From sequence record PQ818761.1: a DNA stretch of 64,000 nt. One strand, given 5' to 3'. The number at the start of each line of letters is the position of its first letter. The first letter of the stretch is position 1. A program made the translations under genes and the position numbers. The DNA comes from Escherichia phage EcoM2. Below, piece after piece: positions 5,068-62,020 of the stretch. The notes under the pieces are model-generated. The model worked only from the letters and a program-made list of their open reading frames with translations. It was not told the DNA's origin and searched no databases.

Positions 5068-5324
5068 TTTTACTCCCTCTAAAATCATTAACCTCATACA
5101 TTACTGCAAAAAATTATAAAAAGCAAGTTGACAATGTACTTGACAAGGTGTTAATCTTTGCGAAGTGGGTTTTTACTTAAAAGGTTACTTAACAGTTTAA
5201 CTATACAGATACTTTAAAACTCTTAAAAGATTATTTAATAGCTTTTAAAAAGCTTTAAAGTATAACGTATAGAATACGTTAAGATAAAAGATTAAAACTT
5301 AATAGTTACTTAAAAGAGGCTTAC

Positions 5325-5747
5325 ATGCAGAAAATGTTTGTTCACCCAGACATAGCTGACTTTGTTAGAGCTTTGCAGAAGTTGGAAGAACTTGACATTG
5401 CTGCTCAACGGGAATATGCTCACCATCACAGGAGAATGGTTGATATACAACATGAAATAGAGTTGTCTGAAAACTATGAAGATGACTTAAAATGCTCTGT
5501 ATTTGAGCATATGAAAGATGTTGCTACAGCTAGACGTAAAGCTAAAGACACAGTTGCTTTACTAGATTCTCTTAAAAAGAGGTTGCAAAGTGGTACAGAC
5601 CTGTGTAATCTAGCGTCACTGATTAATGATGTTGAAACTTCTTGGGATAGACATTACTATCCACGTTCTGAAAAGACACTTGACTTTTCTTCATCCGAAA
5701 ACTTAAAATGTTCTAGAAAGAAACTTAACCAACTGAGAGAGAAATAA
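5325..5747 (+). CDS. hypothetical protein
   Basis: 140 aa ORF; first gene of rightward block diverging from the polymerase gene; RBS AGAGG upstream. Confidence 0.5.
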   Translation: MQKMFVHPDIADFVRALQKLEELDIAAQREYAHHHRRMVDIQHEIELSENYEDDLKCSVFEHMKDVATARRKAKDTVALLDSLKKRLQSGTDLCNLASLINDVETSWDRHYYPRSEKTLDFSSSENLKCSRKKLNQLREK

Positions 5748-6549: not shown

Positions 6550-6566
6550 GTCTTTATAAATCTTAC

Positions 6567-6595
6567 AAGCCTCCTTAGTTGGGGGCTTTTTAGTA
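6567..6595 (+). terminator. putative rho-independent terminator
   Basis: AGCCTCC-ttagtt-GGGGGCT stem-loop followed by TTTTT. Confidence 0.45.
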
Positions 6596-41218: not shown

Positions 41219-41467
41219 ATGGCAACTATCCGCGCAACTGTCAATGCTTATGGCTGTTATACTCTGGACGTTAAATTTGATATTGGTGGAACTGATGAGT
41301 GTTTTTCATTAGTGAAGACAGTTATCAAGCAAGTTATCCCAGATTATAACCCTACTGATGACTTCTGGAAAGACGCTGTAAAAGAGGCATTAAACGACGA
41401 GCATCACTATCATTACTGGGGTGACTTGATTATCTCACTGTACTACAATAAACAAGGTTACAACTAA
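41219..41467 (+). CDS. hypothetical protein (small-gene array 16)
   Basis: 82 aa ORF. Confidence 0.5.
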   Translation: MATIRATVNAYGCYTLDVKFDIGGTDECFSLVKTVIKQVIPDYNPTDDFWKDAVKEALNDEHHYHYWGDLIISLYYNKQGYN

Positions 41468-41505
41468 TCGACGCAACGGGGCTAAATAGCCCCAGATACC
41501 TTCAC

Positions 41506-41528
41506 AGCCCCATTTAAGGGGCTTTTTT
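41506..41528 (+). terminator. rho-independent terminator
   Basis: AGCCCC-atttaa-GGGGCT hairpin followed by TTTTTT; ends the rightward small-gene array. Confidence 0.6.
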
Positions 41529-41529
41529 A

Positions 41530-43128
41530 CGTCTATGTAATAGCCCCTATACAATCCTTTCCCTTTCCTTTCCAGAATCTTACTAGACCTTAAAAGCAAT
41601 AACTCTATAGCTTACTCTATAACCCCTTATCAAATCAACTTAAATATAAGCCCATAACCCGAAAGGGAAGGGCAACCGTTTAAACGCTCTATAAAGCTCT
41701 ATAACAGCCTTATCAACCTAACTTAAGGGATTGCATTACCTCACCCTTAAAAGCCCTTTATAAAGCTTCTCAGAGCCTTAAAAGAATCTTATAAGGGTGT
41801 AAGCTTTATTATCTCGTTAGTTCCTTGTGAATATCTAGAAAGGGCTATGAGATAGGAATCTATCGAATCCTATTGTTAGTGTCTTAAAAGTGTGTTATAG
41901 GGGCTATGAAGTTACTTCAAAGTTGCTTAAAAGTTACGTAAATGCTAGCCCCCTTAACATTTTCTTAACAATTTCTTAACAAACCCTACATAGTTATGCT
42001 TTTAAGGCACTTGTTAGCAACTTGTTAGCCCCTTGTTAAATCTCTGTTAAAACCACGTAAAAGCCTTGTAAGAGTCTTTGACATAGCCTTAAAAGCTCCT
42101 GTAAAGCTCTATAAAAAGGTGTCTGTACAGTTGGGGTGTAATTACTAGGAAGAGACTTAAAAGAGCTTACAAAGAGCTATAGAGAGCTTTTAAGAGGTAT
42201 GTTTAAGGAATCACTAAGAAAGGAAAGGGAATGATAAGAAAAGGGATAGTGACCATGTTAATAGCTTGTTAAAAAGATTAGACACTTGTTAGGAACTTGT
42301 TAATTATCTTAACAAAATAACTCTTAAAAATTAACTTGTTAGCTCTTGTTAGTCACTGTTAAGACTCTGTAAAGACCATGTATCGACTGTTAAGAACTTG
42401 TTACAGCCTTGTTAGTTCTGTTAAGAGTCTGTTAAGACCTCTGAAGAGATGTTAAGAGCTTGAGAGAGTTGTTAAGAGATTGTTAAGGATATTTTAAAAT
42501 TCTGCAAAGGGGATGTTACAGGGATGTTAAGGGCTACCAAGCAGATATACATCCTAGACAGATATTTTTCAGTTCCTTCAAAAACCCTAAAAAATGACTT
42601 GATAGCCCTATTTTATAAAAATTTTAAAAATCTGAATAATTACCTAGACAGTCTTTCAAAAATACAGGTAGAAACAGGCTTATAAGATACCTTGTTAGTA
42701 CCGTGTTAGACCTTGTGAGATAAGGTCTGTAAAGATATTCCTGTTAAGTTTGTTAAAACAGTCTATATAGAGGCTTAGTAATACCTAGTGAACACCTATA
42801 GAGGGTCATCTATGTGACATAGAGATTAAGAGGTGTATAGGAGCTTCTAAGAATGTGTAGAGAGATGGTTAAGGTGATTGTATAGGTTGTTAAGAATGCT
42901 TGTTAGAAGAGTGTTTAGAAGGGCTATACAGATGGGCTATTAAGACCACTAGATAGATACTAAGATACTATATAGTACTATATAACTGTATATAGAGAGT
43001 AAGCTTAAGAAGGGTGTTAAGAAGGATAGATATTTTATTCACATATGATGGTGACCCAGAGGTTGGGACAACCGATAAAATTTTATAAAAATTAAAAAGC
43101 CCCCAATTAAGGAGGCTCTTAAGATATT
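41530..43128. repeat. ORF-free repeat-rich region with iteron-like short direct repeats
   Basis: About 1.6 kb with no ORF of 60 aa or more on either strand; more than 20 copies of TGTTAAG / CTTGTTAG, locally at about 11-bp spacing (42330-42540), plus CTTAAAAG and GCTCTATAA repeats. Confidence 0.6.
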
Positions 43129-43722
43129 TTAAATCAGTGTTTCCAGAACTGTCTTCAGTGATGACTTGGTTGTCTGATAAAAATGAGTAAATCCATTGTT
43201 GTTATCGAATACCTGCATCATGATATCATCTCCCTTGATTGGGTACACTCGAATATCATAGTGAAACCCATTAAAGACAGCAGAACCATTACAGAATGAA
43301 CTGAAATCATCCACTGAGATATACTCTTCATGACCTGTGATTTTTATACAAACACCTTTACTCGGTCTCTTAGGGTTGATATCTTCCATCACAGACATAC
43401 TCTGTCCACCAAGAGATACCATAGTGACCACTTTACGGTTCTTCTGTCTAAAGTACATCTTAACTTTCTGCAAAGTGTCTTCATAGAACGGATAAGACTT
43501 CTCTACAAAGATTCCTTCTAACGGCTCTTTACCATTTTCAACTTCTCTGTTATGCCGTACTGCAAAGATAATTTGTTGGAACCAGTCAAAATTTTCTTCG
43601 GAGAGTCCTTCCCGAATATCATTCCAGTCAAGGACTAGGTAGTTACCTTCAACTTCTTTTAAGTTATCTTTTTCCATATCTATCACACCATTATCGTAAA
43701 ACTTGGTACTCTGGAACTGCAA
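43129..43722 (-). CDS. hypothetical protein
   Basis: 197 aa ORF; first of the leftward block converging on the repeat region. Confidence 0.5.
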   Translation of the reverse strand: MQFQSTKFYDNGVIDMEKDNLKEVEGNYLVLDWNDIREGLSEENFDWFQQIIFAVRHNREVENGKEPLEGIFVEKSYPFYEDTLQKVKMYFRQKNRKVVTMVSLGGQSMSVMEDINPKRPSKGVCIKITGHEEYISVDDFSSFCNGSAVFNGFHYDIRVYPIKGDDIMMQVFDNNNGFTHFYQTTKSSLKTVLETLI

Positions 43723-55641: not shown

Positions 55642-55716
55642 GCATCCATAGTTTAAACGGGAAAATTACAGTCTTCCAAACTGAGGTTGAGGGTTCGATT
55701 CCCTCTGGATGCTCCA
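55642..55716 (+). tRNA. tRNA-Gly (anticodon UCC)
   Basis: Acceptor GCATCCA/TGGATGC, anticodon loop CTTCCAA, T-arm GAGGGTTCGATTCCCTC, CCA. Confidence 0.75.
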
Positions 55717-55730
55717 AATTAAGGTGTGAT

Positions 55731-56144
55731 ATGAAAATATGCAGTACTTGCAGAATACCAAAAGATGAAAGCTTATTCCATAAGAATAAGAACAAAAAAG
55801 ATGGTCTTCAAAGTCAATGCAAAGACTGTGCAAGACTTCGTGATGCAAAGAGTTATCAAGCAAATGATAAAAGGAAAGAGGCTATTAAAAGCACTCGTAA
55901 CGTCAAGAGAGAGTATAACAAGGCTCTAGCTAGAAGGTACAAAGCTTTATGCAAATGTCATATATGTGGTGAGAAAGAACCAGTTGCACTGGATTTACAC
56001 CATACAGACCCTTCCCAGAAAGATTTGAATCCTGCATCACTTTATTCATACTCCACAAAAAGATTAAAAGATGAAATCAGAAAGTGCATTGTCTTGTGCG
56101 CTAACTGCCACAGAAAAGTACATGCTGGTATCATAAAAGTTTAA
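55731..56144 (+). CDS. HNH endonuclease (homing-endonuclease-like) inside tRNA cluster
   Basis: 137 aa with Cys pairs and LHHTDPSQKDLNPAS...CANCHRKVH, an HNH zinc-finger core. Confidence 0.6.
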   Translation: MKICSTCRIPKDESLFHKNKNKKDGLQSQCKDCARLRDAKSYQANDKRKEAIKSTRNVKREYNKALARRYKALCKCHICGEKEPVALDLHHTDPSQKDLNPASLYSYSTKRLKDEIRKCIVLCANCHRKVHAGIIKV

Positions 56145-56145
56145 T

Positions 56146-56222
56146 GCTGCTTTCGTATAATTGGCTATTACACATCCCTTGTAAGGATGGAAATGCAGGT
56201 TCGAGTCCTGTGAGCAGCACCA
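56146..56222 (+). tRNA. tRNA-Thr (anticodon UGU)
   Basis: Acceptor GCTGCTT/GAGCAGC, anticodon stem CATCC/GGATG with loop CTTGTAA, T-arm GCAGGTTCGAGTCCTGT, CCA. Confidence 0.75.
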
Positions 56223-56329
56223 ATTCAGAGGTCAAGTGAAAGACCGCTTTGAGTCAACTGAAGACCGTAACAAATTCCACGGAGTTGAGTTAGCGGCACA
56301 ACTCCAGACCTCTTCTCACACTCGCTTAG

Positions 56330-56394
56330 TTTATATGGTAAAACATCACCCTTACAAGATGAAGAAAAAGGTTCAAGTCCTTTAGTGAGTACCA
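56330..56394 (+). tRNA. tRNA-Val (anticodon UAC)
   Basis: Acceptor ACTCGCT/AGTGAGT, D-stem GTTT/AAAC, anticodon loop CTTACAA, T-arm AAAGGTTCAAGTCCTTT, CCA; only about 65 nt by my coordinates, so boundaries need software confirmation. Confidence 0.55.
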
Positions 56395-56395
56395 T

Positions 56396-56473
56396 GTTCC
56401 AGTATCCCAATTGGCAGAGGATGCAAGCTCAAACCTTGTACTAGTGACGGTTCGAATCCGTCTTGGAACACCA
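56396..56473 (+). tRNA. tRNA-Leu (anticodon CAA), short variable arm
   Basis: Acceptor GTTCCAG/TTGGAAC, anticodon stem GCAAG/CTTGT with loop CTCAAAC, T-arm GACGGTTCGAATCCGTC, CCA. Confidence 0.55.
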
Positions 56474-56478
56474 ATTTT

Positions 56479-56554
56479 GCAGGATTAGTTCAAATGGATA
56501 GAGCAACAGTCTACGAAGCTGTTAATAGGGGTTCGAATCCCTTATCCTGCGCCA
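56479..56554 (+). tRNA. tRNA-Arg (anticodon ACG)
   Basis: Acceptor GCAGGAT/ATCCTGC, D-stem GTTC/GAGC, anticodon stem ACAGT/GCTGT with loop CTACGAA, T-arm AGGGGTTCGAATCCCTT, CCA. Confidence 0.8.
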
Positions 56555-56573
56555 ATTTAAAGAGGCTATTTAG

Positions 56574-57131
56574 ATGAGATATTTGAAGTATGCTTCATGG
56601 ATTTTCTTAGCTTTGTTAGAGCCATTTGCAGCAATCTTAGCAGTTATCTTAGCACCCTTTGTAGTTCCATTCTACAGTGAGAAGAAAGGCCACTTACCTT
56701 TCGGATTCAGGTGGATGGAGACATATGACAACCCAATTGATGGTGATGAAGGTCACGTTAAAAGATGGGCTAAGATTAGAAAGATTGGTAAGCTTGGTGT
56801 CTATATGCAGAGAGTTGGTTGGCTCTGGAGAAACAAAGCTTATAACTTCTCTTACCATGTGTTAGGAAGAGATGTAAAAGATGTTACTAAGTGGAAAGGT
56901 AATATCAATGTAAGTTCTAACCCTGAAGATAATCAGACAGGTTATCTCCTAATGTGGAACAGTAATGCTTGGGGATTATTCGCTTTTATCCCGTCAATTA
57001 AAGTCTTTGGTAAGCAATTCTACTGGAGAATTTATGTTGGGTGGAAACTTAAAAGTGTTGTCCCAGAAGAAAGAGCATTCTCAAGGGGAAGAGTTATGTT
57101 GGCATTCTTTATTCATCCACTGAGAAAGTAA
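56574..57131 (+). CDS. hypothetical membrane protein inside tRNA cluster
   Basis: 185 aa; N-terminal hydrophobic region WIFLALLEPFAAILAVILAPFVVPF. Confidence 0.45.
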   Translation: MRYLKYASWIFLALLEPFAAILAVILAPFVVPFYSEKKGHLPFGFRWMETYDNPIDGDEGHVKRWAKIRKIGKLGVYMQRVGWLWRNKAYNFSYHVLGRDVKDVTKWKGNINVSSNPEDNQTGYLLMWNSNAWGLFAFIPSIKVFGKQFYWRIYVGWKLKSVVPEERAFSRGRVMLAFFIHPLRK

Positions 57132-57139
57132 AGATTTAA

Positions 57140-57215
57140 AGGGGATTAGTTTACAAGGTTAAAACCTCGGTCTTTGAAATCGAAGAAGTTGGTTCAATTC
57201 CAACATCCCCCGCCA
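57140..57215 (+). tRNA. tRNA-Gln (anticodon UUG)
   Basis: Acceptor AGGGGAT/ATCCCCC (A1-C72 unpaired), D-stem GTTT/AAAC, anticodon stem TCGGT/ATCGA with loop CTTTGAA, T-arm GTTGGTTCAATTCCAAC, CCA. Confidence 0.65.
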
Positions 57216-57217
57216 AT

Positions 57218-57296
57218 GCTCCATTACTCCAATTGGCAGAGAGGCCAGACTTAAAATCTGTGTTATGTATCGGTTCGAATCCGATATGGAGTACCA
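57218..57296 (+). tRNA. tRNA-Leu (anticodon UAA), short variable arm
   Basis: Acceptor GCTCCAT/ATGGAGT, anticodon stem CAGA/TCTG with loop CTTAAAA, 7-nt variable region, T-arm ATCGGTTCGAATCCGAT, CCA. Confidence 0.55.
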
Positions 57297-57301
57297 AATT
57301 T

Positions 57302-57377
57302 AGCGGTATAGCATAACTGGCAATGCAACAGTCTCTGAAGCTGTCTTATTAAGGTTCAAATCCTTATGCCGCTGCCA
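57302..57377 (+). tRNA. tRNA-Gln (anticodon CUG)
   Basis: Acceptor AGCGGTA/TGCCGCT, D-stem GCAT/ATGC, anticodon stem ACAGT/GCTGT with loop CTCTGAA, T-arm TAAGGTTCAAATCCTTA, CCA. Confidence 0.75.
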
Positions 57378-57408
57378 CTTCTAAGGGTTCTTACGAGAGT
57401 CCTTAAAT

Positions 57409-57484
57409 GTGGCCTTATCATAAAAGGTAATGACCCATGCTGTGAACATGGTCTATACGGGTTCAAATCCCGTAGGTCACCCCA
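57409..57484 (+). tRNA. tRNA-His (anticodon GUG)
   Basis: Acceptor GTGGCCT/AGGTCAC, D-stem TCAT/ATGA, anticodon stem CCATG/CATGG with loop CTGTGAA, T-arm ACGGGTTCAAATCCCGT, CCA. Confidence 0.8.
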
Positions 57485-57489
57485 ATTTA

Positions 57490-57566
57490 TAGTCCAAGTA
57501 GCTTATATGGTTAAAGCGCGTGTCTGAAAAACATGAGAAGAGGGTTCAAATCCCACTGGACTACCA
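57490..57566 (+). tRNA. tRNA-Phe (anticodon GAA)
   Basis: D-stem GCTT/AAGC, anticodon stem CGTGT/ACATG with loop CTGAAAA, T-loop GGGTTCAAATCCC; exact acceptor boundaries ambiguous by hand. Confidence 0.6.
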
Positions 57567-57582
57567 ATTTCAAAGGTGCTTA

Positions 57583-58317
57583 ATGAAAGAGATGACAGAA
57601 CAAGGTAAGGAGATTTTTAATCTCTTAAAAACCGGTAGAGGGTTTTCTAATCCCCTTATTACTGGTGCAGCAGTTCTAGGTGGAACCGTAGCTGCCTCTA
57701 CATCACTTGTAAGCTCTATTAGCTCTGTAACAGACCCTACAATAAAGGATAAGCTTGTTGCCGCTGGACTGACAACAGTTCTGCTTAACAGCTTTACAAC
57801 GAGTCTGACAAGCACTACATCAACTACTAAGACATTGACAGATTATGGTCAAAAGTCTATTGATGAGTTTTCCTCACGTATGCAGGTAGCAAAAGGCTAC
57901 TCCAATGTTATGGGTGCAGCAGGAGAGCAAGTTGGTTGTACACCATTTAGTGGTATTATGGGTGTTGCTACAGAGTATGGTCAAAAAGCTATTGACACAA
58001 TTAACAGTGCACTAGACGGTGTTAATGATGTATTAAGTGACTTACAAGATGCTATTGATAAAGGTCTTGATACTGTTTCTGATTTAGCTAACCAAGCTGT
58101 TAGTAAGATTAATGAAGGTATCTCGAAGATTACAGCTTATGCAGATGAAGTTGTGCAGATGATTGAAGAAGAAGCTGCCCTTATTGCAGAGTACCTTAAA
58201 ACGAATATCAATGGGTTCTTAGCAGGTATCTTACCAGACTGGTTTGATGATGCTTGTAAAACTGGTGTAATTGACACTATTGCAACACCAGAAATGAAGA
58301 ACGCATTACAGAAATAA
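57583..58317 (+). CDS. hypothetical Ser/Thr-rich protein
   Basis: ORF-track ORF 57520..58317 trimmed to ATG 57583 so it does not overlap tRNA-Phe; Ser/Thr-rich N-terminal half. Confidence 0.45.
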   Translation: MKEMTEQGKEIFNLLKTGRGFSNPLITGAAVLGGTVAASTSLVSSISSVTDPTIKDKLVAAGLTTVLLNSFTTSLTSTTSTTKTLTDYGQKSIDEFSSRMQVAKGYSNVMGAAGEQVGCTPFSGIMGVATEYGQKAIDTINSALDGVNDVLSDLQDAIDKGLDTVSDLANQAVSKINEGISKITAYADEVVQMIEEEAALIAEYLKTNINGFLAGILPDWFDDACKTGVIDTIATPEMKNALQK

Positions 58318-58318
58318 T

Positions 58319-58411
58319 GGAAGATTAACCCTAAAAGGTAAGGGAGCAGTTTGCTAAACTGCCAGTAGCTGAGAAATCGGTGTACCAGTTCAAGTCTGGT
58401 ATCTTCCTCCA
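58319..58411 (+). tRNA. tRNA-Ser (anticodon GCU)
   Basis: Acceptor GGAAGAT/ATCTTCC, anticodon stem GCAGT/ACTGC with loop TTGCTAA, long variable arm, T-arm ACCAGTTCAAGTCTGGT, CCA. Confidence 0.8.
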
Positions 58412-58415
58412 ATTT

Positions 58416-58491
58416 GAATCCGTGACAGAAATGGCTATGTGCCTGTCTGCAAAACAGGTTTATAAGGGTTCGAGTCCCTTCGGATTCTCCA
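58416..58491 (+). tRNA. tRNA-Cys (anticodon GCA)
   Basis: Acceptor GAATCCG/CGGATTC, anticodon stem CCTGT/ACAGG with loop CTGCAAA, T-arm AAGGGTTCGAGTCCCTT, CCA. Confidence 0.8.
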
Positions 58492-58914: not shown

Positions 58915-58935
58915 TTCTATTTGCGGAGGTGCTTA

Positions 58936-60537
58936 ATGGATTTAAATGCTGTTAAGCAGAAGCGAGTGGAAGATGTTAGGAAAGTCCTAGCTGGAGAGTT
59001 GGGGCTTTCTGATGAAGTAAAAGAAATTATCAAATCATTCGGTAAAGACCCCTCTAAATTCCTTCCAACTCAAATTCTGACTTTATTAAGATACACACCA
59101 GACCAAGTTAGACTTATCTTCAAATTGATGACTGATAAGAATTATGTAGCCCCTCAACCGGGTTCTCAAGAGGTGTTTTTAAATACTAATGCTGACTTGG
59201 TTTTATATGGTGGTGCTGCTGGTGCTGGTAAAACTGCTGCATTGTTAATGGACTCTTTAAGGTTTATTGAAGACCCTAACTATAACGCTGTATATTTCCG
59301 TCGAAATACAACACAGTTACAAGGTGGTTTATGGCCTGCTGCAAAGAAACTATTTGGTAAGTTTGGTGGGGTTCCTCACGAGCAGAAGATGACTATCACA
59401 TTCCCTTCTGGGGCAACTATCAAGTTTACCTACCTAGAACTTGAAAAGCACGCTGAAGGTCATCAGGGTATTGAATACTCAGCTATCTACTTTGACGAAG
59501 GTACACACTTCTCTGCTTCACAGATTTCATACCTACAGACTCGTCTACGTTCTGGTGCTGAAGGCGATTCATACATGAAGATTTCCATGAACCCAGATAG
59601 AGACCATTTTATTTATGATTGGGTAGAACCATTCTTAGATAAAGAAGGTTATCCAGACCCTGAAAAGTGTGGTCGTATTCGTTGGTATGTAATGAATGAT
59701 GGTGTTATGGTTTCTGATTGGGAAAGAGACAAGATTCTTGAAATGTTCCCTCTTGAGATTCCTCAAACATACACCTTCATCTCTGGTACGATTGATGATA
59801 ACCCAATTCTTGACTTCTTAGAACCTAAATATCGTGGTAAGTTGGAAAACAACACACCTGTAAACGTTGCAAGACTTCGTTTCGGTAACTGGAAGGCTCG
59901 TGCAGAAGGTTCAAACTATTGGCAAAGACAATGGTGTGAGATTGTTGATTCACTCCCAGAAGATGTGTTTGATGTCAGAGCATGGGACTTAGCAGCAACT
60001 TTACCATCTGAGATTAACCCTAACCCAGACTGGACAGCGGGTGTTAAGATGGGTAAATCTAAAAAAGACGGTTGCTATTATATCATTGATGTAGTAAGAT
60101 TTAGAGATAGACCCTCTGGAGTCGAAACACAAATTAATTTGACTGCTGAAAGTGACGGTAAGCGAACTGGTATTTTTATCCCTCAAGACCCAGGCGCTGC
60201 TGGTAAATCCTATGCAACATCCCTCATCAGGAAACTTGCCGAGAAAGGTTATCGCGCAAGAGCTAAACCAACAAATAAAGATAAAGTTACCCGCTTTGCG
60301 GGATTTTCTGCTGCTTCTGAAGCTGGACTTGTAAAAGTTTTGAGAGGCAGTTGGAACGAAGCTTACTTTCAAGAACTTGAAGGTTTTTGTGGTGATGGTA
60401 AAACTAAAGATGACCAAGTGGATGCTACCAGTGATGCTTTCAACAGTCTTAACGAAGTTAAATTATTCAAGCCACCATCAATGGGTGCTCACACAGACTT
60501 AGTGAGAGGAAACCCATATGAGGGGCTTAGACGTTGA
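58936..60537 (+). CDS. terminase large subunit
   Basis: Walker A LVLYGGAAGAGKTAAL and Walker B-like IYFDEGTHF; ORF track begins at TTG 58921 but ATG 58936 has a GGAGG RBS. Confidence 0.75.
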   Translation: MDLNAVKQKRVEDVRKVLAGELGLSDEVKEIIKSFGKDPSKFLPTQILTLLRYTPDQVRLIFKLMTDKNYVAPQPGSQEVFLNTNADLVLYGGAAGAGKTAALLMDSLRFIEDPNYNAVYFRRNTTQLQGGLWPAAKKLFGKFGGVPHEQKMTITFPSGATIKFTYLELEKHAEGHQGIEYSAIYFDEGTHFSASQISYLQTRLRSGAEGDSYMKISMNPDRDHFIYDWVEPFLDKEGYPDPEKCGRIRWYVMNDGVMVSDWERDKILEMFPLEIPQTYTFISGTIDDNPILDFLEPKYRGKLENNTPVNVARLRFGNWKARAEGSNYWQRQWCEIVDSLPEDVFDVRAWDLAATLPSEINPNPDWTAGVKMGKSKKDGCYYIIDVVRFRDRPSGVETQINLTAESDGKRTGIFIPQDPGAAGKSYATSLIRKLAEKGYRARAKPTNKDKVTRFAGFSAASEAGLVKVLRGSWNEAYFQELEGFCGDGKTKDDQVDATSDAFNSLNEVKLFKPPSMGAHTDLVRGNPYEGLRR

Positions 60538-60553
60538 TAGCTAGGTGAGAAGA

Positions 60554-62020
60554 ATGGCAGAAATTACAGAAACACAAGAAAGCTTACCACCATTTAGAAT
60601 GGGTGAAGTAGGTTCTTTGGGTCTGAAGGTTAAGAATGGTAGAATCTATGAAGAACCTCGTCAGGCACTAAGGTTCCCTGAAAGTATTAAAACTTTCCAA
60701 TTAATGATGCGTGACCCTGCTGTAGCAGCATCTGTGAATATTATTAAGATGTTTGTCAGAAAAGTCAACTGGAGATTTGTACCTCCAAAGGGAAAAGAGC
60801 AAGACCCTAAAATGCTTGAAAGAGCAGACTTCTTTAATTCTTTAATGGATGACATGGAGCATGATTGGGCAGATTTTATTAACTCTGTAATGTCATTCTG
60901 CACTTATGGGTTCTGTGTTAACGAAAAAGTTTATAAGAAGCGACAGGGTAAAAAAGGAAAGTACCAGTCTAAGTTTGATGATGGTCTAATTGGGTGGGCT
61001 AAATTACCAATCAGAAACCAATCAACACTTGATAAGTGGTATTTTGACGAAGACTTTAGAAAAGTTACTGGTGTTAGACAGAATCTGAGAAATGTTTCAC
61101 ATATTGCTGGAGCAATTAATCTTGGGGAAAGACCTCTAACAAGAAAACTCCCACGAGCTAAATTCATGCTGTTTAAGTATGACGATGAATATGGAAATCC
61201 AGAAGGTCGTTCACCATTACTTAATGCTTATGTACCGTGGAAATATAAAGTACAGATTGAAGAGTACGAAGCTGTTGGTGTTTCAAGAGACTTGGTAGGT
61301 ATGCCAAAGATTGGTTTACCACCAGATTATCTGGATGAAAATGCAGAACCTGAAAAGAAAGCTTTCGTACAATACTGCAAAACTGTTGTTAACGATATGA
61401 TTGCTAATGACAGAGCAGGTTTAATCTGGCCTAGATATATCGACCCAGATACTAAAGAGGATATTTTTGAGTTCTCATTAGTTTCTAGACAGGGTGCTAA
61501 AGCGTATGATACAGGTTCTATTATTGACAGATATTCCAAGCAGATTATGATGGCATTTATGTCAGATGTTCTTGCTATGGGTCAGTCAAAATACGGTTCA
61601 TTCTCTCTTGCAGATTCTAAGACAAGCTTATTAGCAATGTCAGTAGATATTCTGCTGAAGCAAATTAAGAACGTAATTAACCGTGACTTAGTTGCACAGA
61701 CTTATGCTCTTAATATGTGGGATGATGAAGAACATGTGCAAATCACATATGATGATATCGAAACTCCAGACCTTGAAGCAATTGGTTCTTATATTCAGAA
61801 GACTGTTGCAGTAGGTGCTTTGGAAGTTGACAAAGAGCTATCTAACAAACTTAGAGAGCATATTGGTCTTCCTCCTGCTGATGAGTCTCAGCCAGTATCT
61901 GAAAAACTTTCTCCGAATAGCCAAAGCCGTTCAGGAGATGGTTATAAGACCGCTGGAGAAGGTACTGCAAAGACACCTTCAGCAAAAGACCCAAGCACAG
62001 CAAATAAGGCAAATAAATAA
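60554..62020 (+). CDS. candidate portal protein
   Basis: About 488 aa ORF directly downstream of terminase large subunit; assignment by position and size only. ORF track begins at GTG 60545. Confidence 0.45.
   Translation: MAEITETQESLPPFRMGEVGSLGLKVKNGRIYEEPRQALRFPESIKTFQLMMRDPAVAASVNIIKMFVRKVNWRFVPPKGKEQDPKMLERADFFNSLMDDMEHDWADFINSVMSFCTYGFCVNEKVYKKRQGKKGKYQSKFDDGLIGWAKLPIRNQSTLDKWYFDEDFRKVTGVRQNLRNVSHIAGAINLGERPLTRKLPRAKFMLFKYDDEYGNPEGRSPLLNAYVPWKYKVQIEEYEAVGVSRDLVGMPKIGLPPDYLDENAEPEKKAFVQYCKTVVNDMIANDRAGLIWPRYIDPDTKEDIFEFSLVSRQGAKAYDTGSIIDRYSKQIMMAFMSDVLAMGQSKYGSFSLADSKTSLLAMSVDILLKQIKNVINRDLVAQTYALNMWDDEEHVQITYDDIETPDLEAIGSYIQKTVAVGALEVDKELSNKLREHIGLPPADESQPVSEKLSPNSQSRSGDGYKTAGEGTAKTPSAKDPSTANKANK

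Follow-up and report, generated by a model that had tools for sequence, protein, structure and literature searches.

Between two blocks of genes that are transcribed towards each other, the genome of Escherichia phage EcoM2 (PQ818761.1) carries 1.6 kb of DNA filled with short phased repeats, and it is this region that concerns us here. We analysed it within a window of 64,000 nt from that record, which is a Felixounavirus genome (that is, a Felix O1-like myovirus); all coordinates are window positions. An earlier note, made from the letters alone, had described 41530-43128 as free of open reading frames (ORFs), and the ORF list agrees in that none of at least 60 aa lies there. Lowering the threshold to 30 aa brings up only two, one at 41435..41599 (minus strand, 54 aa, TTG start) and one at 42524..42685 (plus strand, 53 aa), the latter being disrupted, that is frameshifted, by indels of 1 nt and 24 nt in relatives. 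The convergent setting described in the same note holds as well: the last rightward ORF occupies 41219-41467, the last leftward ORF 43129-43722, and hairpins aim inward from both edges.

Inside this spacer lies the homologue of the direct terminal repeat (DTR) of related phages. By homology to the ends of relatives, the EcoM2 DTR is ~591 bp long and spans 41948-42538, give or take 2 bp, with one copy only in the window (a collapsed assembly). UAB_69 has an annotated 618-bp DTR in the homologous non-coding region, starting at the homologue of 41946 and ending at that of 42540. Both ends of the CRP22 record carry an identical 579-bp duplication, as do those of HP1 (a Mooglevirus) with 570 bp, annotated as a repeat, and in both phages the DTR end maps to 42538. 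For UAB_Phi87, the sister of UAB_69, Bal31 digestion together with run-off sequencing has established a DTR of 608 bp, and the terminase of that phage groups with those of the DTR type (PMC4837284); the Felix O1 genome paper likewise inferred short terminal repeats (PMC3185647). The records of CRP22, HP1, E9, ECP2307 and NBSal004 all begin or end at the homologue of 41948, and a metagenomic contig from IMG/VR (L104) stops at the same base as the right DTR end. In Erwinia phage M7 (Kolesnikvirus) the identical end duplication measures 444 bp, and its ends are homologous to those in the window: the M7 start reads TTAGCCAC versus TAGCCCCC in the window, and its end GGCCACTAA/GTAGATATACA versus GGGCTACC(AA)/GCAGATATACA, the slash marking the cut here and below.

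The sequences at the two boundaries are conserved over three genera, being invariant or nearly so in two and recognisable in the third; all 27 of the 27 nt in the right boundary block (42525-42551) are invariant in 12 Felixounavirus and Mooglevirus sequences. Conserved boundary blocks, together with independent records that start or stop at the same bases, are what unique, sequence-defined and non-permuted ends should leave behind. A headful pac site was considered and rejected, since the ends of relatives are fixed at two points, with an exact DTR, and are not permuted. A terminal inverted repeat, TAGCCC(CC)TTAACAT, stands at both DTR boundaries in the window and is only weakly mirrored in M7; it is possibly relevant. 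By its homology to relatives with determined or deposited ends, the region is, as predicted from sequence, a concatemer junction, made up of a left flank of ~420 bp, one collapsed DTR and a right flank of ~590 bp. Among the functions that the earlier note had offered for phased repeats, a packaging region is thus the one that relatives' ends favour, since they place the DTR, and hence both predicted virion ends, inside the region. The same note had named termini lying elsewhere, and unrelated coding sequence in relatives, as findings that would speak against it; what we found is that relatives share the non-coding sequence and that their termini map here. The parts of the region and its two edges, from left to right, are as follows.

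41506..41523, plus strand: intrinsic terminator at the end of the rightward gene block, a stem-loop with a T-run; AYO145A and Mijalis have an annotated terminator at the homologous site.
41530..41947, no strand assigned: left flank, which precedes the right-end DTR copy in the virion; motifs in the C-rich orientation.
41909..41942, plus strand: 11-bp array of AAGTTNCTTAA, three copies, adjoining the left cut site; tandem repeats finder (TRF) period 11.
41946..41959, plus strand: left DTR boundary block TA/GCCCCCTTAACA, with the virion left end at 41946 or 41948; near-invariant in 12 sequences.
41948..42538, no strand assigned: DTR; those of CRP22, HP1 and UAB_69 correspond over their whole length to 41946/8-42538/40.
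41953..41982, minus strand: three CTTAACA units (the reverse of TGTTAAG) at 41953, 41964 and 41975; TRF period 11, 94% matches.
42009..42074, plus strand: six 11-bp units, ACTTGTTAGCA, ACTTGTTAGCC, CCTTGTTAAAT, CTCTGTTAAAA, CCACGTAAAAG and CCTTGTAAGAG, at which polarity turns forward; phase exactly 11.0 bp.
42088..42194, no strand assigned: central dyad of CTTAAAAGCTC with GAGCTTTTAAG and CTCTATA with TATAGAG, the symmetry centre of two motif families.
42256..42303, plus strand: four TGTTAA/TTGTTAG sites at 42256, 42267, 42287 and 42298; very AT-rich, identity 0.90-0.93.
42333..42535, plus strand: main array, 12 TGTWAR sites on one helical face with a period of 10.4-10.5 bp; the longest phased array, preceding the right cut site.
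42525..42551, plus strand: right DTR boundary block TGTTAAGGGCTACC/AAGCAGATATACA, with the virion right end at 42538 or 42540.
42555..42688, no strand assigned: AT-rich spacer free of arrays, directly right of the DTR; windows of 22.5% GC at 42560 and 42610.
42689..43022, plus strand: right-flank arrays in the G-rich orientation; GC skew +0.4 to +0.59, identity 0.84.
43095..43120, minus strand: intrinsic terminator at the end of the leftward gene block, a 10-bp stem with a T-run; its homologue is annotated as a terminator in AYO145A.

The repeats that fill the DTR and its flanks are far in excess of expectation. TGTTAR occurs 31 times between 41874 and 43020 (27 copies on the plus strand, 4 on the minus strand), where shuffles predict ~3 per 1.6 kb; the 64 kb as a whole has 140 copies, and shuffles give ~123. 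Eight copies of CTTGTTAG lie in the region versus three in the remaining 62 kb, CTCTATAA is present four times there and twice elsewhere in the window, and CTTAAAAG is found seven times on the plus and twice on the minus strand. All of these families are variants of one degenerate unit, YTKTWAR, set within units of 10-11 bp, and degenerate copies such as CACGTAAAAG appear as TATGTTAAGAG in relatives. There are ~50-58 YTKTWAR sites over the DTR and both flanks, and motif density in the region is 6-7 times that elsewhere.

The CTTAAAAG family is not confined to the terminal region, since 24 copies lie elsewhere in the window. One place with such motifs is a divergent intergenic stretch at 5098-5325, which separates a leftward ORF of 909 aa from rightward genes, is AT-rich, and has TTGACA hexamers along with several motifs of the CTTAAAAG/CTTTAAAG type, one of which overlaps a ribosome-binding site (CTTAAAAGAGG).

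The spacing of the sites also departs from chance. Neighbouring YTKTWAR sites on the same strand are 10-11 bp apart in 12 pairs; random placement gave 2.8 such pairs on average and never more than 11 in 5000 trials. The 12 sites in 42330-42540 share a single phase with a period of 10.4-10.5 bp (R = 0.82-0.89, Rayleigh p ~3e-4), and those in 42012-42100 keep a phase of exactly 11.0 bp. A search for tandem repeats, suggested in the earlier note, points the same way, TRF returning more than 10 short arrays of period 10-11. Phase is coherent only inside blocks of ~60-200 bp, however, and Fourier analysis of motif and dinucleotide indicators across the 1.6 kb gave no outstanding single periodicity, with only the DTR sub-block rising above all genomic control windows; we therefore limit the claim to block-wise phasing. 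Helical-turn spacing, as first described for these repeats, thus stands inside blocks, at 10.4-10.5 or 11.0 bp, and falls as a single register over the whole 1.6 kb.

A second level of organisation is the strand on which the motifs lie. With one exception, the C-rich forms CTTAAAAG, CTCTATA and CTTAACA are found at or left of 42156, and, again with one exception, the G-rich forms CTTTTAAG, TATAGAG and TGTTAAG at or right of 42178, TTGTTAG being present from 42011. Motif polarity is therefore bipolar, with the switch at ~41985-42180, inside the DTR. The left flank has CTTAAAAG at 41589, 41746, 41777, 41883 and 41926 and CTCTATA at 41603, 41615, 41687 and 41697; the right flank has TTGTTAG/TGTTAG at 42692 and 42704, TGTTAAG at 42742, 42888 and 43015, TTGTTAG at 42900, TATAGAG at 42766, 42797 and 42991, and many copies of TTAAGA. 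No forward YTKTWAR site is present between 42492 and 42622. GC skew, at -0.27 to -0.46 over 41450-41824, flips locally from -0.45 to +0.59 because of this motif polarity. An inflection of the kind proposed as a check on an origin is present, but it says nothing on the matter, being dominated by transcription direction and motif strand polarity.

At the left cut site, the arrays face each other: the cut lies inside an imperfect 34-nt inverted repeat (I1, 41909-41942 with 41999-42032, 76% complementary) formed by opposed 11-bp arrays. The copy number of the outer array, at 41909-41942, differs among relatives by whole 11-bp units, and the CTTAACA array just inside the left end has one additional unit in Alf5. 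The degenerate members of the six units that follow read TGTTAAG or TTGTTAG in Mooglevirus, and in the main array cores are kept among relatives while spacers vary. The main array also shows a higher-order structure, 42333-42462 being a 62-bp duplication in 2.1 copies (80% matches) of six ~10.3-bp units. A 22-bp palindromic insert (AATTGGTATTGTTACCAATCCC) is present in the DTR of two Salmonella phages, UAB_69 and CECAV_041, at two positions ~25 bp apart in the homologues of ~42310-42335, and is missing from the window and the other relatives.

The central dyad contains a perfect 11-nt inverted repeat (I6) as well as I3 and I10, and its DNA fold gives z = -3.05; we do not claim a hairpin or cruciform role for it, as its arms are without compensatory change in Mooglevirus. 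RNA-fold z-scores over sliding 150-nt windows average -1.1 with a minimum of -4.25 at 42080, and the low-z windows, of which this is the strongest, owe their values to inverted copies of the DNA motifs; the arms of these folds show no co-variation, and no compensatory changes in Mooglevirus. We accordingly attach next to no credence to a non-coding RNA or small peptides as the product of the region, even though it is highly conserved while lacking long ORFs and a few windows fold better than shuffles, because an Rfam scan with a permissive E-value cut-off gave as its best hit one on a terminator, at E = 0.18 and 26 bits where the gathering score is 55, no convincing promoter is present (in a sigma-70 scan inside the region the best match was 9/12 and the total count was not clearly over shuffles), the terminators point inward, and the 53-aa ORF is frameshifted in relatives.

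Conservation gives the arrays their weight. The region matches 256 phage records from Escherichia, Salmonella, Shigella and Citrobacter hosts, and in 191 of these the match extends over at least 80% of the region, with 80-94% identity (90-94% to Felixounavirus genomes). Scored against the window in a sample of 11 relatives, five of them Mooglevirus, mean identity is 0.83 for the non-coding region versus 0.71-0.74 for the flanking ORFs, and in Mooglevirus the adjoining 197-aa protein has fallen to 49-53% identity, while the non-coding DNA stands at ~77%. Motif cores are more conserved than non-core positions (0.875 vs 0.816, p = 8e-4). Identity in the left flank is 0.79, with peaks of 0.92-0.94 in 41600-41700 and 41750-41800. 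Most indels measure 11, 21-22 or 32 bp, adding or removing entire repeat units, and so preserve register. In Kolesnikvirus, PMBT37 and Arno18 the region is unalignable save for ~100 bp at the right DTR end, and 42450-42551, comprising array and right cut site, is the only stretch that can be aligned to the Erwinia Kolesnikvirus; in all three, the convergent genes are nevertheless still separated by ~1.45 kb of non-coding DNA. In PMBT37 and in Kolesnikvirus (Rouille, M7) there are 9-12 copies of TGTTAAGA in one orientation and a different left-flank motif, TCTTCTAA, whereas in Arno18 the motif is mostly in its reverse form, TCTTAACA, with 5 copies. The excess, the phasing, the conservation of cores, the unit-sized indels and an architecture kept across genera are, on comparative grounds, evidence for the arrays being functional cis elements.

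How does the region compare with systems already described? With the DTR region of other Felix O1-like phages (UAB_Phi87/UAB_69, Felix O1, M7) it shares its position between the same convergent blocks and its boundary sequences; identity is 77-94% in Felixounavirus and Mooglevirus, the DTR measures 570-618 bp there and 444 bp in M7, phased arrays are present as well, and we see no essential difference. The location of the terminus is thus already known for the family, but the phased motif arrays are uncharacterised: we found no description of them in the Felix O1 genome paper (PMC3185647) or a comparative Felixounavirus paper, nor in literature searches, to which access was incomplete.

The nearest likeness outside the family is phage T7, whose short-repeat arrays were reportedly named SRL/SRR by Dunn and Studier in 1983. 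Our own computation on the T7 junction gives a 160-bp repeat, with 13 CCTAAAG units spread over the repeat and its flanks, all in one orientation and 13 bp apart. Both phages have a short exact DTR with many copies of a ~7-bp motif inside it and on both sides, in non-coding DNA. The T7 arrays cover ~0.5 kb, however, with early promoters and phiOL/phiOR among them, whereas those in the window are bipolar with a switch in the DTR, are spaced at 10-11 bp, extend over 1.6 kb (roughly threefold), have no evident promoters and lie between convergent transcription units; as far as tested, the terminases of the two phages belong to unrelated sequence families. Bipolar polarity, a different motif and a different spacing led us to reject membership in the SRL/SRR arrays, leaving T7 as an analogue only. 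Short repeats on both sides of the cut, bound by the small terminase and often bending DNA, are also a feature of P1 pac, lambda cosB and SPP1 pacL/pacR, sites of 100-300 bp with 3-7 repeats that serve headful or cos packaging. The window differs in having ~50 sites over 1.6 kb and two precise cuts ~590 bp apart that would generate a DTR.

We therefore favour, with middling confidence, a reading in which the region is a Felix O1-like concatemer junction, the arrays are binding sites for a protein of the cutting and packaging machinery, and the two conserved blocks are where the DNA is cut. In outline, replication would yield head-to-tail concatemers with one DTR per junction, and the two convergent terminators would insulate that junction from transcription. 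A phage DNA-binding protein (a putative small terminase or accessory factor) would bind the 7-8-bp YTKTWAR motifs in their forms TGTTAAG, TTGTTAG and CTTTTAAG; as the motifs of each block lie on one helical face, many protomers could line up or wrap the DNA. The resulting nucleoprotein complex would position TerL (encoded at 58921-60537; phrog_979, E = 2e-233) to cut at TA/GCCCCCTTAAC and GGGCTACC/AAGCAGATATACA, and the DTR would be duplicated by strand-displacement synthesis, as proposed for T7, giving a copy at each virion end. While the end positions are placed by homology and the motif excess, phasing and conservation are directly observed, we infer both the identity of the binding protein and packaging as the purpose of its binding.

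Several points weigh against this reading. The ORFs scanned, among them two of at least 150 aa upstream of TerL, yielded no recognisable small terminase, and the protein proposed to bind the arrays is a putative one. The end positions in EcoM2 itself are predicted from homology. The lattice of sites reaches ~500 bp past either cut site, beyond the needs of any characterised terminase site, and the role of short-repeat arrays is unsettled even in T7, the closest analogue, where single insertions at most genome-end loci are tolerated (bioRxiv 10.1101/2024.10.10.617714). Lastly, a 2026 review calls the mechanism that generates DTRs poorly understood (PMC13595956), and the cutting and duplication steps set out above are therefore extrapolated.

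A more specific version of the packaging proposal, which we put forward tentatively and think rather unlikely, is that the ~50 phased YTKTWAR sites form a bipolar lattice for a putative protein conserved in Ounavirinae, and that this lattice is the recognition element by which exact DTRs are made. If true, DTR-type packaging would for the first time have a defined pac-like signal. The lattice may also double as an origin or end cap, functions that bring us to the alternatives.

It is conceivable, though in our view unlikely, that the arrays are instead the iterons of a phage origin (or of one of several), with an initiator melting the AT-rich DNA of 42200-42350 or 42555-42690, in which case co-location with the DTR would be secondary or replication and packaging signals would be combined. 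The region does resemble the iteron origins of plasmids and phages, having direct repeats in helical phase beside AT-rich DNA: they adjoin stretches of 22-30% GC, 80-bp windows at 42260, 42560 and 42610 fall to 22.5% GC and could serve as an unwinding element, and conservation is strong. No origin of a Felix O1-like phage came to light in literature searches. In T7 the secondary origins phiOL and phiOR, whose positions are annotated, lie next to the terminal repeat. The unit is, however, much shorter than the 17-22 bp of iterons, with cores of 7-8 bp in 10-11-bp units separated by variable spacers, and the termini map inside the arrays. No initiator gene adjoins them, as the six flanking ORFs matched only PHROG families of unknown function in a PHROGs scan. 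Searches of the region with IHF and DnaA consensus sequences gave essentially nothing; no cluster of DnaA boxes is present, and the only DnaA-box-like site, an 8/9 match, stands at the far edge (43035). The location between convergent terminators, with internal promoters no better than the 9/12 already mentioned, also argues against an origin, and the turn in GC skew is accounted for by gene orientation and motif polarity. A partition site, the remaining option of the earlier note, is unlikely too: no partition protein is found among the same six ORFs in the PHROGs scan, and the family consists of virulent Ounavirinae.

The arrays might also act after injection, as sites near the ends to which a protein carried in the virion, an early protein or a host factor binds so as to cap the DNA against exonucleases, control its entry or organise the ends for recombination into concatemers. 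In favour of this, a cut site needs less DNA than the terminal 0.6-1.2 kb that the lattice takes up at both virion ends, and owing to bipolar polarity both ends would show the flank motifs in the same inward-reading orientation. According to a suggestion by the PhageMaP authors, the Felixounavirus Bas63 may have no RecBCD inhibitor, and no Chi lies near the ends, the one site found being far off and at chance level. On the other side, neither a candidate protein nor an experimental hint is at hand, and the deepest conservation is that of the array adjoining the right cut site, which points to cutting, not capping. We regard such a role as improbable.

Finally, the repeats could be non-functional products of slippage, with only the cut sites and terminators being functional. 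Copy number does shift by whole 11-bp units between relatives, the 62-bp higher-order duplication is present, and perfect 11-bp arrays of a similar unit exist in unrelated viral contigs. Yet the non-coding spacer is more conserved than the neighbouring genes and the cores more than the spacers, Kolesnikvirus keeps the same motif and architecture while the rest of the region has become unalignable, and the strand polarity is strictly organised; slippage is consequently a very improbable account.

The viral contigs just mentioned came from a scan for phased TGTTAAGA, which, among the matches listed, returned Ounavirinae relatives as well as unrelated contigs with perfect 11-bp arrays. Non-coding 11-bp arrays of the same unit lie in L114 (8613-8725), L066 (5709-5795), L035 (1212-1450) and L090 (870-975), as perfect tandems of (AACTTGTTAAG) x10 and (TGTTAAGAARA) x8 and, in L035 and L090, as looser but phased copies. 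None of the four has nucleotide similarity to the window, and the fetched flanks of the unrelated array contigs share no proteins bar one weak match (E = 1e-4). As arrays of this kind are what the scan pattern picks out, their presence there could be chance.

Felix O1-like phages are abundant, easily grown and used in the biocontrol of Salmonella and E. coli, and they can now be engineered genome-wide (Bas63 PhageMaP). For the reading that we favour, a packaging junction, the region supplies mapped cut-site blocks, a conserved phased motif and natural variation in array copy number, and is thus a substrate both for finding the recognition protein and for testing the role of the arrays, a question shared with T7. 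The DTR boundaries are also of practical use in annotation: deposited Felixounavirus genomes start at many different points, and the boundaries show where such a genome should be opened and closed.

Some further features of the window deserve mention. A cluster of 25 tRNA genes on the plus strand (53033-58491) lies directly upstream of TerL, which is followed by the portal gene at 60545-62020. In the TerL ORF, which starts with TTG, the match to the PHROG terminase profile sets in only at position 82 of 642, and the start of the ORF, or an N-terminal part, may be mis-called in the mechanical ORF list. GATC does not occur in the 64-kb window, compared with 187 +/- 12.5 copies in dinucleotide-preserving shuffles, and ATGCAT, CAGCTG, CCATGG, AGGCCT and CACGTG are likewise missing (Markov expectations of 6-15); such a lack of GATC and of 6-bp palindromes means that restriction or Dam sites are strongly avoided. 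The text of the Felix O1 genome paper (PMC3185647) nowhere contains the string GATC. The right-edge terminator (43093-43125) has a 33-nt inverted copy, 91% identical, at 6560-6592, and from this resemblance the pair looks like a reused module.

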